Notes under the pieces: generated by a model
What the model saw: the letters and a program-made list of their open reading frames with translations, nothing else
Databases searched by the model: none
Told to the model about the DNA's origin: nothing
In this document: in pieces, positions 4,111 to 30,408 of the stretch
Layout: every line of letters starts with the position of its first letter
Position numbering within the stretch: position 1 is the first letter of the stretch
Program-made: the position numbers and the translations under genes
Assembly: GCA_038046625.1 (NCBI GenBank)
Contig: JBBSVV010000003.1
Span: 1 to 64,000, forward strand
Direction: 5' to 3'
Source: an archaeon
GTDB lineage: Archaea > Iainarchaeota > Iainarchaeia > Iainarchaeales > Iainarchaeaceae
DNA: 64,000 nt

Positions 4111-4183
4111 TGCAGCTGCCGGGATTCGAACCCGGGCCAACAGCTTGGAAGGCTGTGATGCAAAACCGCTACACTACAGCTGC
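4111..4183 (-). tRNA. tRNA-Gly(TCC)
   Basis: GCAGCTG/CAGCTGC acceptor, ACAGC-CTTCCAA-GCTGT anticodon arm, CCGGG-TTCGAAT-CCCGG T arm. Confidence 0.93.
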
Positions 4184-5065
4184 TTTAAGGAAATCAGCAT
4201 GGGTCGGAACTATTCCCGTTTCCTTAAAAATCCTGTATTTTATTGAATGCTTAATATTGCTGGGTTTAATTAGTTTAAAAAAAGTATCCACGTGAGCCTG
4301 ATCGTAGATATAAACGCTTTTTCCGGATAAGCTTGCCTTAAATCCCAGTGAAACCAATGCGCACTTTACCTCATAGAGGAAATTTGGCGAACAGCTGATA
4401 AATTCGACTACCGCACTATTTTTTCTTCTTCTATGAAAACTTCCGTCAGTGTCGAATAAGCCCCTCAAATATGCTGCAAGAAGATTTCTGTCGTTGAGGA
4501 TTTTCCTTTGGATAAACATCCTGTTTTTTCTGTTTCCTTTCGGAAACCCAAACTCTTCAGAAAGATATGAAACAAGCCGCTTTGAATAAACCTGGCAGCG
4601 TATTGCCCCGTTTTTAACGATAAAAGTCGGCTCCAGTCCGAATAGTTTTTCAAACTTTTTTCCAATGCTGTTTTTCACATACGCATTATCTACAATTGCT
4701 CCGCATGTAATTGATACCCTGTAATTTTTTTCGTAAATATTTCCGTCGCCTGACATGGCGCCAAGGAATTCCGCAAGCTCTTTGCCTAGTTTCGGTTTTC
4801 GGATTTCTTTTTCCCCAAACTGGTCAAGTTCTATTAATTGCAATTTTTCAATTTCTTTTAAATCGAATCCTGTTTCTTTGCAGAGTGTTTTCAAATTGCT
4901 TAAAGATATCCTGCAATTTTCTTTTAAGTAGTGGAAAATCATTCTTTTTGTAACGCCGATTATATCTGCAATTTTTTGCCAGCCAAGCCCGGAGTGCTCT
5001 TTTATCTTTCTGAGAACTGCCGCCTGATGCCAAAGGCCAGTCTGCACAAATAGTTCTTTTGCCAT
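4169..5065 (-). CDS. Free-standing double-motif LAGLIDADG endonuclease with N-terminal HTH; stop codon inside tRNA-Gly
   Basis: LAEFLGAMSGDGNI and YLRGLFDTDGSF; HTH-like GWQKIADIIGVTKRMIFHY; visibly AT-richer than flanks. Confidence 0.88.
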   Translation of the reverse strand: MAKELFVQTGLWHQAAVLRKIKEHSGLGWQKIADIIGVTKRMIFHYLKENCRISLSNLKTLCKETGFDLKEIEKLQLIELDQFGEKEIRKPKLGKELAEFLGAMSGDGNIYEKNYRVSITCGAIVDNAYVKNSIGKKFEKLFGLEPTFIVKNGAIRCQVYSKRLVSYLSEEFGFPKGNRKNRMFIQRKILNDRNLLAAYLRGLFDTDGSFHRRRKNSAVVEFISCSPNFLYEVKCALVSLGFKASLSGKSVYIYDQAHVDTFFKLIKPSNIKHSIKYRIFKETGIVPTHADFLKAAVV

Positions 5066-5853: not shown

Positions 5854-5857
5854 ACAA

Positions 5858-5908
5858 CCTTTTTTCTTTTCCCGGAGAAAAGAAAAAAGCTTGGCCAAAA
5901 AAGAAAAG
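5858..5908 (+). repeat. Dispersed T-tract/A-tract repeat family B
   Basis: cc + T-rich tract, gaaaagaaaaaa, ttggcc, aaaaaagaaaag; same layout at 7743, 7975, 27011, 36553. Confidence 0.75.
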
Positions 5909-5977
5909 CCATTCTTTGCCAAAAGAAAAGAACCCTAAGCCTAACAGATTTTTCCGTGGCGAAATCTTTTAAATTGC

Positions 5978-7972: not shown

Positions 7973-7974
7973 AA

Positions 7975-8025
7975 CCTTTTTTCTTTTCTTGCGAAAAGAA
8001 AAAACGTTGACGAAAAAAGAAAAGG
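7975..8025 (+). repeat. Repeat family B copy, directly upstream of tRNA-Val
   Basis: cc + T-rich tract-ttgc-gaaaagaaaaaa-cgttgacg-aaaaaagaaaagg. Confidence 0.75.
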
Positions 8026-8121
8026 CAAGTCCTGTTGCTGGAACAGCGTAGAATGAAGTGCCCTGATAGGGTTAAAAAAGTTGGCTAAAAAGGGAAAAAA
8101 GGCTTCTGAAGCAGAAGCCGT

Positions 8122-26778: not shown

Positions 26779-26934
26779 TTACGGGCCTTCGAATCCGCAT
26801 TCTTTGCACTTGTATACGAGGCTTCTTTTGCGCGCATCCAAGCTGCGGTCTATTTTTGTGCCGCATCCAGGGCACTTGAACTCAATGAAATCGTCCGTGA
26901 GAATTTTGTTGGTTGTAATGCATGTTTTTATCAT
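26779..26934 (-). CDS. DUF1610-type Zn-ribbon protein (51 aa)
   Basis: MIKTC..FKCPGCG..YKCKECGFEGP*. Confidence 0.88.
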   Translation of the reverse strand: MIKTCITTNKILTDDFIEFKCPGCGTKIDRSLDARKRSLVYKCKECGFEGP

Positions 26935-27010
26935 TGAAAAAACCTTATTTTTAGCGGCATTATTTGTCTAGTATTCTCTATTGAGTTACCTTTAAAAAGG
27001 TTGATTTCAG

Positions 27011-27058
27011 CCTTTTTCTTTCTTGCGAGAAAGAAAAACGCTGGCGAAAAAGAAAGAG
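27011..27058 (+). repeat. Repeat family B copy
   Basis: cctttttctttct-tgcg-agaaagaaaaa-cgctggcg-aaaaagaaagag. Confidence 0.75.
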
Positions 27059-27119
27059 ACGGGGCATATTTTTGGCCATAGAACCTTTAATTAAGTGTTT
27101 TTCACCCATTTTTTTGCAC

Positions 27120-27156
27120 GGGCCCGTAGCTCAGCCAGGATAGCGCCCACCTCCGC
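27120..27156 (+). pseudogene. Orphan 5' half of a tRNA-Arg-like gene
   Basis: GGGCCCGTAGCTCAGCCAGGATAGCGCCCACCTCCG; TATA-like tttaattaa at 27086-27094; no T arm or 3' acceptor strand follows. Confidence 0.75.
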
Positions 27157-27302
27157 AATCGAATTTTTTCCTAAGACTCGGATTTTCTCGGCTTAAACCT
27201 TTGCACACTTCAACCCCTGCTTTTGGTGCAAAGGGTTTAATGCCTCCAAAACCCGCAAGACGTCTTTCGGAAAAAATTTCATCATTTAGCGGAGGTGGTC
27301 AA

Positions 27303-27416
27303 ATGGTCGAAATTCCGATTCCAAACAAAGAAGAAATAGATTTAGCAGTAGAGGCTGAAGAGTTGACGGACAGGGAACTGTGGATTCTTAGCAAGTTTGG
27401 AGGTGATTTTGAATGA
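27303..27416 (+). CDS. Small acidic ORF (37 aa) coupled to the endonuclease
   Basis: SD ggaggtgg; MVEIPIPNKEEIDLAVEAEELTDRELWILSKFGGDFE*; ATGA overlap with next gene. Confidence 0.65.
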   Translation: MVEIPIPNKEEIDLAVEAEELTDRELWILSKFGGDFE

Positions 27417-28252
27417 ATCTCGCATCGGCAATCAGCCCTCTAAAATTGTATAATAATGCTTCAGAAGTACCTGCCATTATGGGCTTTGATTTTTCGTCAG
27501 ATTTGGCCGAGGTTTGCGGCATCCATGCGGGCGACGGATACCTTCGTAATGACGGAAAAAGAAGGGAGCTAGACATCAGCGGCGGCATTGATGAAAAGGA
27601 ATATTATGATTCGCATGTCGTGCCTCTTTTTGAACGAGTTTTTGGAATAAATATTACTCCAAAATTTTTTCCAAAACGTCATACTTACGGTTTTGTAATT
27701 CGCGACAGAAACATTGTTGAGTTTATGCACTCGCTTGGGTTTCCTTATGGGGCAAAAACTTTCACAGTTTCAGTTCCTGAATTTGTTTCCAATTCCAAAA
27801 ATTTGGATATACTATATAGTTTCATTAGGGGCGCTTTTGACACAGATGGTTGCCTAGCTTTTCAAAAGAAAGTGGGAAGCGGCTATAAAAGTGAAGTAAA
27901 GAGGAAGCACTCCTTTCCTGTAGTTCAGATAAGTATCTGCTCTAAACCATTTTGTGATGGGCTGTGTTCACTTTTCAGGAAAACCGGTTTTAACTGCAAA
28001 GTTGTCATGCAGAAACCTACTTATGACTATCAACACGTGAAATATGCCTTGTATTTGAGGGGTTATTCTAATCTTAAAAGTTGGATGCGCAACATTGGGT
28101 TCAAAAATACTTCAAAACTATCGCGCTATGAGGTTTGGGAGAAATTCGGTTTTTGTCCTACTAACATTTCTTTTGAGCAGAGAAAACAAATATTAAATAA
28201 TGAACTTGACCCCAATTCCTTCTATAAGCATGGGCTCGTCGCTAACGGATAA
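27413..28252 (+). CDS. Free-standing double-motif LAGLIDADG endonuclease; stop codon inside tRNA-Arg
   Basis: LAEVCGIHAGDGYL and FIRGAFDTDGCL; SD ggaggtgat; AT-rich. Confidence 0.9.
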   Translation: MNLASAISPLKLYNNASEVPAIMGFDFSSDLAEVCGIHAGDGYLRNDGKRRELDISGGIDEKEYYDSHVVPLFERVFGINITPKFFPKRHTYGFVIRDRNIVEFMHSLGFPYGAKTFTVSVPEFVSNSKNLDILYSFIRGAFDTDGCLAFQKKVGSGYKSEVKRKHSFPVVQISICSKPFCDGLCSLFRKTGFNCKVVMQKPTYDYQHVKYALYLRGYSNLKSWMRNIGFKNTSKLSRYEVWEKFGFCPTNISFEQRKQILNNELDPNSFYKHGLVANG

Positions 28253-28302
28253 GCACCCCGCCTTCGAAGCGGGCGATGAGGGTTCGAATCCCTCCGAGCC
28301 CG
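28232..28302 (+). tRNA. tRNA-Arg(TCG), atypical D-arm
   Basis: GGGCTCG/CGAGCCC acceptor, CCCGC-CTTCGAA-GCGGG, GAGGG-TTCGAAT-CCCTC. Confidence 0.85.
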
Positions 28303-28480
28303 CTGCACTTTCACGCAGAATCCTTGATTCTGCTGAAACCTGCACTAAAAAGAAAGAGTGCCGGAAAAAGAAAAGACCCCTGTTTCTGGCTCGGCAAGCC
28401 GTGCTTGGCCGGTTTCAATGTGGCCAGGGCTCGCTTTCTTTTAGGCAAGGAATTAATACTCGCAAGTAGTTGTATTTTTG

Positions 28481-28963
28481 ATGAAGCCAAAAATATTGCC
28501 GCGTGCAAGAAAGTTTTTGAAAAGGCATAAAGGGAAACTAATTATCCCAGTTGGCCTTGGTATTGCGGTTGCGTCCGCTTCTTTTGGCCCGAAGTTAATT
28601 GAGCGCGGTGCAGATTACTTGAACGCGCGCAAGGCGGATGCGATGAGGCAACACAGGCTTGACCTTACCGTTGAGCGGGGGAGGTTTGTTAATGAATTTT
28701 TTTCAAAGACCGGCGCTGTTCCTGAATCGAGAGAAGATTGCAATGCCCTCTGGGCATATTATTACAATAAAAGCCCCGCCCTGAAAGGCCTTTGGGAGCC
28801 AATTCTCAAAAAAACAAGGGAGGAAAAGCTCCGTGACCGCGTTTTTGTGCAGGAGTTCGGGGATGCAGGCCTGGAGTTTGAATTGGCGGTTGTGAGGGAA
28901 GCGCAACCGGAATTTTTTAAAAAGGCGCTTGCTTTGGACAAAGGCGCAGCGAAAAAGAAATGA
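28481..28963 (+). CDS. Hypothetical protein, basic N-terminus plus TM/signal
   Basis: MKPKILPRARKFLKRH..LIIPVGLGIAVASA. Confidence 0.65.
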   Translation: MKPKILPRARKFLKRHKGKLIIPVGLGIAVASASFGPKLIERGADYLNARKADAMRQHRLDLTVERGRFVNEFFSKTGAVPESREDCNALWAYYYNKSPALKGLWEPILKKTREEKLRDRVFVQEFGDAGLEFELAVVREAQPEFFKKALALDKGAAKKK

Positions 28964-29019
28964 ACAACCCAAAACAATCCACTGCCTTTAGGCGTGGGTA
29001 ATTCACTTTTATTGCATGT

Positions 29020-30408
29020 TCAGTAATCCAAAAATTCTTCTTTTCCTTTCAAGTACGCAGTAAGGAACTGCTGGAAACCCTTGTTCTTTTTGTAAAGCGC
29101 GGCGATTTCCTTTTCGCTCATTATTTTCGCGTTTTTTCCGAGTGCTTTTCCCATCGCTTCTTTCTCGGCCCCCCTGAGTTTTTTCAGGAGCTGCGAAAGG
29201 AATGCCTTGAGTTCCGTGTGTTTGCGCTGCACTTCGATTATCCAGCGCCCTTTCTCTATGCGCGGCCCCGCGAGCATTTGTTTGTGTGCGGAGAGGAACG
29301 CTTCGGAATTTTTTTCGTCGAACGCTTCAGGCCCGATTTTTACTTCTGCTTTCTGGAGCTCCGTTGATTCCACCTCGAATAGAATAACCATTTGCTTTTC
29401 CTTTTCCAGCCACTCGGAACTTCGCTTCACTTGGAACCCCCCGAGTTCGGAGAATGTCCTGATTTTGTGCGAGAATCTCCTCAATTGCCCCCACATGATG
29501 TCCTCAATAACCCCTTTCGGATAGGATAGCGAGATTGCAATTAGCTCGGTTTTTTTCAGGAATTGCTTTAGTTTTGCCTGGCTCCATGCAGAGTGTTTTT
29601 TCGGGAAGAAAAAATTGATTGAGGGCTTTTTCATGAATGCTCTTGATGCCGCTATGAAGCGTGCGTACTGGTTTAATGAAAGTGCCGCGGCAACATTCCT
29701 GTTCCTGTCCACTGGATCAACCACTGTAAAATGCCAGCCGAATTTTTTTTGGGCATCCCCTTTCGCATAATAGTTTTCGATGTCAATTGCTTCGCCATTT
29801 TTCCAGTGCGCCGCCGCTTCAAGTGCTTTTGCGAATGACCCGTATTTCAGCACAAGCAGTTCAGCAACGTAACCCGGGAAGCTGTTCGAGCTCAAATCGG
29901 CTCCGTAGCACTTTATTCCTTTCATGAATTGCTTCAGCAGGCGCGCCTCTCCTCTATGGCGCTCCTCCATTTTTTTTACCAGGTAATTGTTGTGCAATAC
30001 GCTTCTGTCTACTGCGCTCTGCATCAGCGATGAATCGGCAATGTTGTATGATGGCACAATTTCCACCCTGAAGCCGTTTATTTCTCCGCGTATGTAGGGG
30101 TGTTCTGAATATGCCTTTTCCCACGTGTGCCCCCTGAAAACGGCTTTTCCTATGCGCAGGCCTTCTTCCTCGAATTCTTTGCGCGGAAGCTCTTTCGGGT
30201 AGAGGACAAATATGTCAAGGTCCCGGTCATTCCTCAAATGCGTATTGCGTGCAATGCTGCCGACAATTTCGACTTTTTCGTGGCTGCCCTTCATTGCCAT
30301 TATTTGTGCCGCGATTTTTTGGGCCAGTTTTTTTTCTTTTGCCAGTTCCTGCTTTGCAGGGGTGATTTTTTTGAGGGTTTTGGCAAGAATCTGCTGCAAC
30401 GGAATCAC
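29020..30408 (-). CDS. cca: Archaeal class I CCA-adding enzyme
   Basis: VGSIARNTHL..DLDIF, YSEHPY, SAVDRS, VVDPVD..RNVAAALS. Confidence 0.96.
   Translation of the reverse strand: MIPLQQILAKTLKKITPAKQELAKEKKLAQKIAAQIMAMKGSHEKVEIVGSIARNTHLRNDRDLDIFVLYPKELPRKEFEEEGLRIGKAVFRGHTWEKAYSEHPYIRGEINGFRVEIVPSYNIADSSLMQSAVDRSVLHNNYLVKKMEERHRGEARLLKQFMKGIKCYGADLSSNSFPGYVAELLVLKYGSFAKALEAAAHWKNGEAIDIENYYAKGDAQKKFGWHFTVVDPVDRNRNVAAALSLNQYARFIAASRAFMKKPSINFFFPKKHSAWSQAKLKQFLKKTELIAISLSYPKGVIEDIMWGQLRRFSHKIRTFSELGGFQVKRSSEWLEKEKQMVILFEVESTELQKAEVKIGPEAFDEKNSEAFLSAHKQMLAGPRIEKGRWIIEVQRKHTELKAFLSQLLKKLRGAEKEAMGKALGKNAKIMSEKEIAALYKKNKGFQQFLTAYLKGKEEFLDY

Follow-up and report, generated by a model that had tools for sequence, protein, structure and literature searches.

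A predicted homing-endonuclease cassette within a tRNA-Arg(UCG) gene of an Iainarchaeota archaeon, accompanied by a foreign allele of the tRNA

The stretch of DNA analysed here, hereafter the window, comprises positions 1 to 64,000 of the forward strand of contig JBBSVV010000003.1 (GenBank assembly GCA_038046625.1), from an archaeon of the Iainarchaeota, a DPANN lineage; the host genome, designated G000, amounts to approximately 1 Mb in 57 contigs and is 84.6% complete. Our subject is an insert of about 1.26 kb, which lies within a resident gene for tRNA-Arg(UCG) and consists of a structured leader, an open reading frame (ORF) of 37 codons, a predicted homing endonuclease gene (HEG) of the LAGLIDADG type, a complete tRNA-Arg(UCG) and a small hairpin repeat (Table 1). 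Between positions 27000 and 28500 both ARAGORN and Rfam call a single tRNA, namely the complete tRNA-Arg(TCG), and on the same strand 5' of it are found, in this order, an A/T box, a tRNA-like fragment of 24-27 nucleotides (nt), a GC-poor structured stretch of about 155 nt, the small ORF and the ORF of 279 codons. A preliminary description of the sequence had laid out the locus in the same way, and every element that it listed was recovered in its place.

Table 1. Features of the interrupted tRNA-Arg(UCG) locus in window coordinates (G numbers denote genomes and C numbers contigs; SD, Shine-Dalgarno sequence).
Feature	Position	Strand	Remarks
TATA-like box of the resident tRNA-Arg gene	27084..27095	+	-36 to -25 from the stub's first base; identical in G001
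5' stub of the resident 'type A' tRNA-Arg(UCG): acceptor 5' strand and D-arm	27120..27146	+	orthology to G001
Structured leader RNA (model R1)	27145..27299	+	anti-SD 27147-27156 pairs with SD region 27289-27298
37-codon ORF	27303..27416	+	strong SD, sequestered by the leader; stop overlaps HEG start (ATGA)
LAGLIDADG HEG (279 aa)	27413..28252	+	own SD 27399-27407; last 21 nt overlap the tRNA
TATA-like box within the HEG's C-terminal codons	28190..28201	+	-42 to -31 from the tRNA; candidate promoter of the imported tRNA
Complete tRNA-Arg(UCG), 'type B' allele, short D-arm	28232..28303	+	ARAGORN; Rfam 52.7 bits, E=4.5e-10
Small hairpin repeat copy	28300..28366	+	91% to G000:C11:11862-11926, 96% to G001:C39, many shorter matches
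Degenerate 3' remnant of the type A tRNA (T-arm region and 3' acceptor strand)	28406..28434	+	only 28428-28434 certain

The history of the resident gene can be read from G001, a genome of the same genus. The preliminary description had suggested an alignment with endonuclease-free relatives, and G001 supplies one: its gene neighbourhood is that of the window, its flanks are 91% identical upstream (624 nt) and 86% identical downstream (525 nt), and between them stands one intact, canonical tRNA-Arg(TCG) of the type that we call A, with no insert. The 24 nt at 27120-27143 are identical to the first 24 nt of this intact tRNA at 23 positions, and to the downstream tRNA of the window at 13; flank and stub taken together agree with G001 at 161 of 174 positions. 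The homology is certain up to 27143, with 27144-27146 ambiguous, and it resumes at 28428, where 7 nt identical to the 3' end of the G001 tRNA continue straight into the common downstream flank. The 22 nt before 28428 are weakly T-arm-like, the remnant as a whole matching in 21 of 34 aligned columns, and positions ~27-44 of the resident tRNA are gone. Since homology to G001 is broken at the stub and taken up again at the remnant, the resident gene was interrupted, and at the level of sequence the comparison demonstrates both an insertion into this gene and its partial deletion.

The identification of the stub deserves some comment. The preliminary description had recognised a canonical-looking tRNA-Arg 5' half preceded by a TATA-like box, and both are found again in G001. 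The spacing of the box agrees with that of the A/T boxes before other tRNA genes of G000, such that it may be taken as a candidate promoter that would now face the cassette. A profile built from tRNA-Arg 5' halves detects the stub with E=4e-4 in the 1 kb upstream of the HEG. By contrast, the Rfam tRNA model gave it no score, either in context or at a sequence end with truncated scoring. The preliminary description had held that failure to score as a tRNA with covariance models would speak against its view; the stub does indeed go unscored, but a fragment of 24-27 nt is too short to reach significance, so that this test is uninformative and the identity of the stub rests on orthology with G001. 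Two further details of that description require correction. The anticodon arm with CCG that it saw in the stub corresponds to positions 27147-27156, a conserved anti-SD motif that opens the leader of the cassette and likewise begins leader copies with no tRNA in front of them. Also, the stub is not altogether without a 3' half, the degenerate remnant downstream of the insert having been overlooked.

Mis-assembly, which had been raised as a possible source of the arrangement, is not indicated. Contigs with zero differences from other sequencing runs (three runs, two studies) bridge four junction-bearing stretches and together carry all junctions, the intervals 27000-27251 and 27222-28311 being reproduced without differences in three runs, and 28282-28366 and 28337-28500 in two. 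No single contig of the independent runs spans the whole region, contig breaks falling at repeats only. A low-depth contig (2.5x) of run X4, which joins 27140 to 28279 via 30 other letters, was considered as a spliced or empty allele and rejected; it is an ordinary tRNA of something else, which has the 5' 21 nt and the T-arm in common with the window.

The complete tRNA, which the preliminary description had placed about 1.1 kb downstream and characterised by its short D-arm, is recognised by ARAGORN and Rfam alike, and the overlap of the ORF end with the D-arm is as described, the 279-codon ORF stopping at a TAA in the D-loop. The D-arm consists of a 3-bp stem plus an A-A mismatch and a loop of 6 nt, and a single additional base precedes the anticodon stem. 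D-arms of this type are also present in G008, G003 and G015, and the tRNA-Arg(GCG) of G000 has a similar one; judging from these relatives, what had been called irregular is normal for a distinct allele, type B. With the type A tRNA of G001, from the same genus, the window tRNA has 72% identity and the upstream flank 91%. With the type B tRNAs of G008 and G015, from another genus, the corresponding values are 92-93% and about 70%, and with G003 88-89% and 64%. The acceptor stem is perfectly paired, and at pair 5:68 the window has U-A where G008 and G015 have C-G; from this compensatory change it follows that the type B copy evolves as a working tRNA. It is also the only tRNA-Arg(UCG) that ARAGORN finds in the 84.6% of the genome that is represented; the look for other tRNA-Arg genes advised by the preliminary description reveals no second TCG, and tRNA-Arg(CCG), with a 47-nt intron, and tRNA-Arg(GCG) on contig C7.

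Among the relatives the allele types do not track genus. In genus g1, G001 has allele A and no HEG, and G000 has allele B together with the type A stub and a full HEG; in genus g4, G012 has allele A and a full HEG, G008 allele B and no HEG, G015 allele B and a HEG remnant, and G004 a third allele type, again with a HEG remnant. These comparisons identify the presumably functional tRNA of the window as a foreign allele that was imported with the LAGLIDADG gene.

A very different explanation would make the stub the true 5' exon of a split tRNA or of a tRNA with a giant intron, the 1.1 kb ORF-bearing intron either splicing itself out or being excised by the archaeal splicing endonuclease. The stub is, after all, an intact, promoter-proximal tRNA 5' part, and G000 has many tRNA introns, of up to 169 nt. 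Of 7385 in-silico joins between the stub and downstream sequence, ARAGORN called 316 as tRNA-Arg, a figure of no diagnostic value, given the homology of the two 5' parts. However, the bulge-helix-bulge (BHB) motif expected of such an intron could not be found. A script requiring 3-bp flanking helices, a 4-bp core and two 3-nt bulges, and comparing 27117-27175 with 28150-28445, returned no strict motif and seven one-mismatch candidates, none of which gives a sensible tRNA; as positive controls it recovered the canonical motifs of the introns of tRNA-Arg(CCG) and tRNA-Glu(CUC). Likewise, the 14 copies of the leader contain no conserved BHB motif. ARAGORN, when allowed introns up to 3000 nt, built no gene that uses the stub, and a search of 26900-28500 with Rfam, including the group I models, at E<=10 gave the tRNA as sole match. 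Furthermore, the downstream tRNA is complete with a perfect acceptor stem of its own, where the stub would bring in a C5-A68 mismatch, the same type of tRNA stands alone without any HEG in G008 and G003, and further downstream the gene to which the stub belonged has left a 3' remnant of its own. The preliminary description had ranked the giant intron below insertion, and with the BHB search, ARAGORN and Rfam all pointing the same way we consider it extremely improbable.

The protein encoded by the 279-codon ORF is predicted to be a LAGLIDADG homing endonuclease, with a pseudo-dimeric alpha-beta-beta-alpha-beta-beta-alpha fold confirmed by structural modelling and both catalytic aspartates in place. 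The two motifs end in aspartates D41 and D145, which are invariant in an alignment of 22 sequences. Its AlphaFold model has a pLDDT (predicted local distance difference test score) of 87.6, and the top Foldseek matches are the endonuclease of the TliVMA intein (1.3e-10) and I-Tsp061I (1.4e-9, TM-score normalised to the target 0.79), followed by PI-PfuI, I-DmoI and PI-SceI, with WhiA also among the matches. Intein endonuclease domains and I-Tsp061I are matched in the PDB by a profile of the HEG as well (7qsu 3e-7, 2dch 0.036). Homologues number 363 at E<=1e-3, many of them with PF14528; the window HEG's own Pfam LAGLIDADG match is weak (E=0.18, 12.5 bits versus a cut-off of 22.5).

The distribution of the gene at its syntenic site, downstream of the genes for EF-1-beta and a zinc-ribbon protein, is patchy. 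In G012 the cassette is complete (76% nt identity) and stands immediately 5' of an intact type A tRNA, G015 and G004 have 5'-truncated HEG remnants abutting their tRNAs, and the HEG is absent from the site in G001, G008 and G003. Such polymorphism in presence, together with decayed copies at one and the same site, fits the selfish life cycle of a homing element. It bears directly on the proposition that the protein is a domesticated LAGLIDADG with a host function, for example a WhiA-like regulator or a tRNA-related factor, the stub having arisen through some unconnected rearrangement. There are precedents for the domestication of LAGLIDADG folds, WhiA appears among the structural matches, the likely promoter of the tRNA lies inside the ORF, and the association with one tRNA gene extends over many DPANN phyla (see below). 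On the other hand, presence, absence and decay among close relatives accord with a selfish cycle, the catalytic aspartates are both invariant, the tRNA alleles are shuffled relative to genus and stubs recur in unrelated lineages, all of which leaves domestication very unlikely in our estimation.

To place the locus in its family we considered 79 loci of HEG relatives in records of Iainarchaeota and of Woese-, Pace-, Nano-, Aenigm- and Micrarchaeota. At 39 of them ARAGORN places a tRNA-Arg(tcg) where the ORF ends, in the same orientation, and 13 have a UCG anticodon-loop motif, the tRNA being miscalled because of introns; seven have other calls, 16 have no call despite sufficient room and four run off the contig. 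Where at least 150 nt of room is available (75 loci), a T-loop word occurs within 330 nt downstream in 71 cases, as against 10 in an equal upstream control, and as a simple motif count 61 of the 75 combine the T-loop word with a UCG loop. The HEG family thus adjoins the 5' side of tRNA-Arg(UCG) across DPANN phyla. Promoter-proximal 5' stubs upstream of the HEG are detected by the tRNA 5'-half profile (E<=10) at about 10 of the 79 loci, seven of which, including the window, reach E<0.02, the other three being weaker, and the stubs mostly end just past the D-loop. The succession of stub, HEG and full tRNA is a recurrent architecture, although most loci have no stub.

Some of these loci have peculiarities of their own. 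In the woesearchaeotal locus L120 (~2001-2025) a stub of 19 nt follows the promoter and the ATG of the HEG lies within the stub's D-loop, such that the old tRNA start doubles as the mRNA start. In other DPANN phyla the HEG-adjacent tRNA-Arg(UCG) often contains several non-canonical introns, one of them directly 3' of the D-loop, close to the point at which the stubs terminate (L075, L078, L081, L082, L085, L092, L093, L100, L104 and L124).

Nor is tRNA-Arg(UCG) the only tRNA gene of G000 with such a neighbour. For five of its 34 tRNA genes (Arg-TCG, Gly-TCC, Gly-CCC, Leu-TAG and Glu-CTC) a same-strand LAGLIDADG ORF (profile E<=3e-17) stops between -10 and +44 of the 5' end. One of these ORFs lies in the window itself, at 4111-5065 on the minus strand; it is 30% identical to the first, has both motifs and ends 12 nt inside tRNA-Gly(TCC), but has no R1 leader, and no obvious stub was seen upstream. 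HEG cassettes also stand directly 5' of tRNA-Leu(TAG) (C7:31933-33434), tRNA-Glu(CTC) (C10:6367-7890) and tRNA-Gly(CCC) (C41:~28200-29282), and on C15 tRNA-Leu(GAG) seems to have before it the C-terminal remnant, shorter than these, of a HEG-like gene.

Could the cassette have been moved by something other than its endonuclease, the HEG being a passenger? The agent might then be the process that spreads the hairpin repeat, or recombination following the uptake of foreign DNA. A copy of the repeat does lie inside the insert, with the imported tRNA on one side of it and the 3' remnant of the resident gene on the other, and the right junction looks illegitimate. Yet it is the HEG family and not the hairpin that is constantly linked to tRNA-Arg(UCG), also in phyla without the R1 leader, and the two tRNA copies are different alleles rather than a duplication made by insertion. 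A survey of ORFs and Pfam domains in the insert yields the small ORF and the HEG alone, with no integrase or transposase. We judge this explanation quite unlikely. As to the repeat itself, further copies are found on contigs C11, C18, C15, C32 and C36 and in relatives. Another hairpin, T-rich/A-rich, of about 45 nt and near-identical between its copies, directly precedes seven tRNA genes of G000 (Gly-GCC, Val-UAC, Ala-GGC, Arg-CCG, Arg-GCG, Ser-UGA and Cys-GCA), ending a few bases before the tRNA, for example at 5855-5925 and 7973-8043 on the minus strand of the window.

The leader, between the stub and the small ORF, is in our view a well-supported new family of structured RNA, on the evidence of its sequence conservation and covariation, and is tied to endonuclease cassettes of differing specificity. 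It has at its extreme 5' end the 16S-like anti-SD, whose partner is the SD of the small ORF, and encloses a helix between a U-run and an A-run and a long hairpin (about 27190-27246). The predicted fold has an energy of -63 kcal/mol (z = -3.0), and the outer SD:anti-SD helix is present in the minimum-free-energy structure. Of 151 genomes sampled across the phylum, 61 gave matches (E<=1e-5) to a covariance model constructed from 14 copies. Over 42 distinct sequences, aligned to the model, 95.3% of cells are paired and 24 of 32 pairs have changed on both sides; none of 500 shuffles reaches the observed pairing, and slid controls are 36-61% paired. In helix 1, the SD:anti-SD helix, all seven pairs have both-side changes and 92.8% of cells are paired, such that the covariation establishes this predicted pairing of the leader. 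No Rfam family matches it.

G000 contains four copies of the leader, of which the other three precede LAGLIDADG ORFs just 24-30% identical, and there are many more in relatives. At 14 of 30 leader-bearing loci a tRNA, on either strand, lies at the end of the large ORF, and at the other 16 there is no Rfam match at the gathering score. Since copies thus occur both at tRNA and at non-tRNA loci, the leader module serves cassettes with various targets. We also considered whether a stub might be a general feature of leader-bearing cassettes, and rejected this; among 16 tRNA-adjacent copies tested, the window's stub alone is convincing.

The peptide encoded by the small ORF is conserved in 24 copies of the cassette, with P7, E11, R24, W27 and L29 at 90% or more, and has no Pfam match and no usable match in Atlas. 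About six copies of the leader carry a different small ORF family, and some cassettes have an extra hydrophobic ORF of 47-50 codons between the small ORF and the HEG. Very different endonucleases have their first ~12 HEG codons in common, as an A-P-A-M-x-P-like motif and in their nucleotides (window 27413-27450; C7, C10 and C49 of G000; relatives). The copy on C49 (G000:C49:250-1652, locus L007) comprises leader, small ORF and a LAGLIDADG ORF of 379 aa with no adjoining tRNA; the next ORF starts with a sequence resembling an intein C-terminus (ending ...VHNS), and this cassette could sit in or beside a split intein.

How the imported tRNA might be transcribed, its own upstream region being coding sequence, is suggested by the TATA-like box in the last codons of the HEG. 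The box is conserved in G012 and has also been retained by G015 and G004, whose HEGs are reduced to 5'-truncated remnants, and at related loci a TATA-like word starts between -50 and -28 before the tRNA in 38 of 59 cases, compared with 9 of 59 in a control window. We infer from this that the promoter of the rebuilt tRNA travels with the element, within the coding sequence of the HEG; if so, any loss of the HEG's 3' end would silence the tRNA.

Taking the evidence together, we propose, with a probability of roughly 0.8, that a free-standing LAGLIDADG homing-endonuclease cassette specialised on tRNA-Arg(UCG) entered the resident gene on the 3' side of the D-arm, at about position 22-27. The corresponding inference of the preliminary description stands in so far as, by comparison with the empty site of G001, a resident tRNA-Arg gene was broken up by a mobile endonuclease cassette, which the promoter of that gene now faces. 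It does not stand as to what was supplied, which was not a replacement 5' end alone but a whole foreign tRNA, the 3' remnant of the resident gene lying about 100 nt further downstream. Mechanistically, the type A gene would have been cleaved near position 22-27 and the break repaired in a one-sided or illegitimate manner that imported the entire tRNA, a sequence of events that we somewhat favour. The left junction would then have formed in the 5' part of the tRNA and the right one illegitimately in the region of T-arm and acceptor, perhaps because the donor and recipient alleles were too different; an illegitimate right junction would explain why a whole foreign tRNA and extra DNA were copied in.

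The expression of the cassette after its arrival can be pictured with similar reservations. The stranded tRNA promoter may transcribe it, a suggestion to which we give even odds. The anti-SD of the leader, a copy of that in 16S rRNA, would lock the SD of the small ORF and keep synthesis of the endonuclease low, the HEG being translated by coupling to the small ORF; this we think somewhat more probable than not. Transcription of the imported tRNA from the TATA-like box in the HEG's last codons has, to our mind, about the same chance of being right as of being wrong. That the different D-arm of the type B allele confers immunity to the enzyme is more tentative, and on balance we would bet against it.

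Several observations weigh against this interpretation in one or another of its parts. About 69 of the 79 loci show no stub at all. In G012, judged by the distance from the upstream A/T box, the cassette begins exactly at the expected first base of the tRNA, and no stub precedes it, so that in some events the insertion point may be +1, or stubs may have been lost later. The stub of locus L112 hardly differs from the new 5' part there, which argues against immunity conferred by the 5' part. The 3' remnant is certain for just 7 nt, and, given the conservation of tRNAs, 92-93% identity with another genus speaks less strongly for transfer than the same figure would in a protein-coding gene. The TATA-like word in the HEG overlaps a conserved peptide motif, and its conservation could be driven by the protein. 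Finally, the pair counts for the leader come from an alignment fitted to the model, a procedure that favours structure.

The closest systems described appear to be the mobile ORFs (mORFs) of fungal mitochondria, which, according to one account (PMC3630166), insert into protein genes together with a foreign C-terminal copy (Allomyces atp6; Glomus atp6, atp9, cox2 and nad3). In both cases, on that account, a free-standing ORF (LAGLIDADG or GIY-YIG in the mORFs) lies inside a host gene and brings a divergent replacement of the displaced part, and the native remnant is closer to the gene of relatives than is the functional copy, a pattern read as endonuclease-driven horizontal transfer (PMC3630166). 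The present cassette differs in residing in a tRNA gene of an archaeal chromosome and not in a mitochondrial protein gene. Moreover, an mORF, as portrayed there, replaces the C-terminal part, often in frame, whereas here it is the 5' end and, at the window locus, the whole gene that is replaced; the cassette has in addition a likely promoter inside its own coding sequence, an SD-sequestering leader and a small upstream ORF.

With I-DmoI, I-Tsp061I and PI-PfuI the predicted enzyme has in common the fold, the architecture of a monomer with two motifs and the targeting of conserved RNA or protein genes. These endonucleases, however, ride in a spliced intron or intein, and their host's product is restored by splicing; the cassette contains no intron, and the gene would be restored at the DNA level by the copy that is carried along. 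Archaeal and bacterial elements that integrate into tRNA genes by means of an integrase likewise target a tRNA gene and have a partial tRNA copy at one end, but the cassette, only 1.26 kb in length, has no integrase, and its duplicate is the 5' part of a different allele (13/24) with no exact att repeat. In phage T4 the free-standing HEG SegB lies in a tRNA gene cluster, and I-TevI has a hairpin that sequesters its ribosome-binding site in read-through transcripts. As in the cassette, these HEGs adjoin tRNA genes, or an RNA structure over the ribosome-binding site damps translation of the endonuclease from upstream transcripts; the T4 elements, in contrast, belong to a bacterial virus and lie between genes, whereas the cassette lies inside a tRNA gene with a carried replacement and has as its leader a conserved RNA of ~155 nt common to cassettes with different endonucleases. 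For archaeal group I introns, PMC6125680 places all 39 of the examples that it reports in rRNA genes. A full-text search of the literature, with subscription journals largely outside it, found no report of homing endonucleases at DPANN tRNA genes.

Some wider possibilities may be mentioned in this context. The R2 elements of rRNA genes carry a self-cleaving RNA at their 5' junction, and by analogy the leader could be a new processing or ribozyme-like RNA, which, beyond locking the SD, frees the message of the cassette from the transcript of the captured tRNA promoter. In a more far-reaching version, which we regard as speculative and unlikely, HEG cassettes would be a main engine of tRNA-gene evolution in DPANN archaea, entering tRNA genes 3' of the D-loop with a spare 5' part and promoter, swapping alleles between lineages and holding the tRNA promoter hostage in the HEG, the leader possibly being an RNA of this processing or ribozyme-like kind, while their decay may seed the non-canonical introns of the D-arm and perhaps the split tRNA genes of these phyla.

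The enzymes are candidates for new rare-cutting nucleases with targets in tRNA genes. For the biology of these archaea, the cassette represents a way in which a homing endonuclease could inhabit an essential RNA gene without an intron, the gene being rebuilt at the DNA level and its promoter placed in the element's coding sequence. Such an arrangement would explain the persistence of the element, the survival of 5'-truncated remnants alone and the shuffling of tRNA-Arg(UCG) alleles among close relatives. As the family is widespread in DPANN archaea and affects 5 of the 34 tRNA genes of G000, it matters for how tRNA genes are annotated and for their horizontal transfer, and it may have a bearing on how non-canonical tRNA introns arose.

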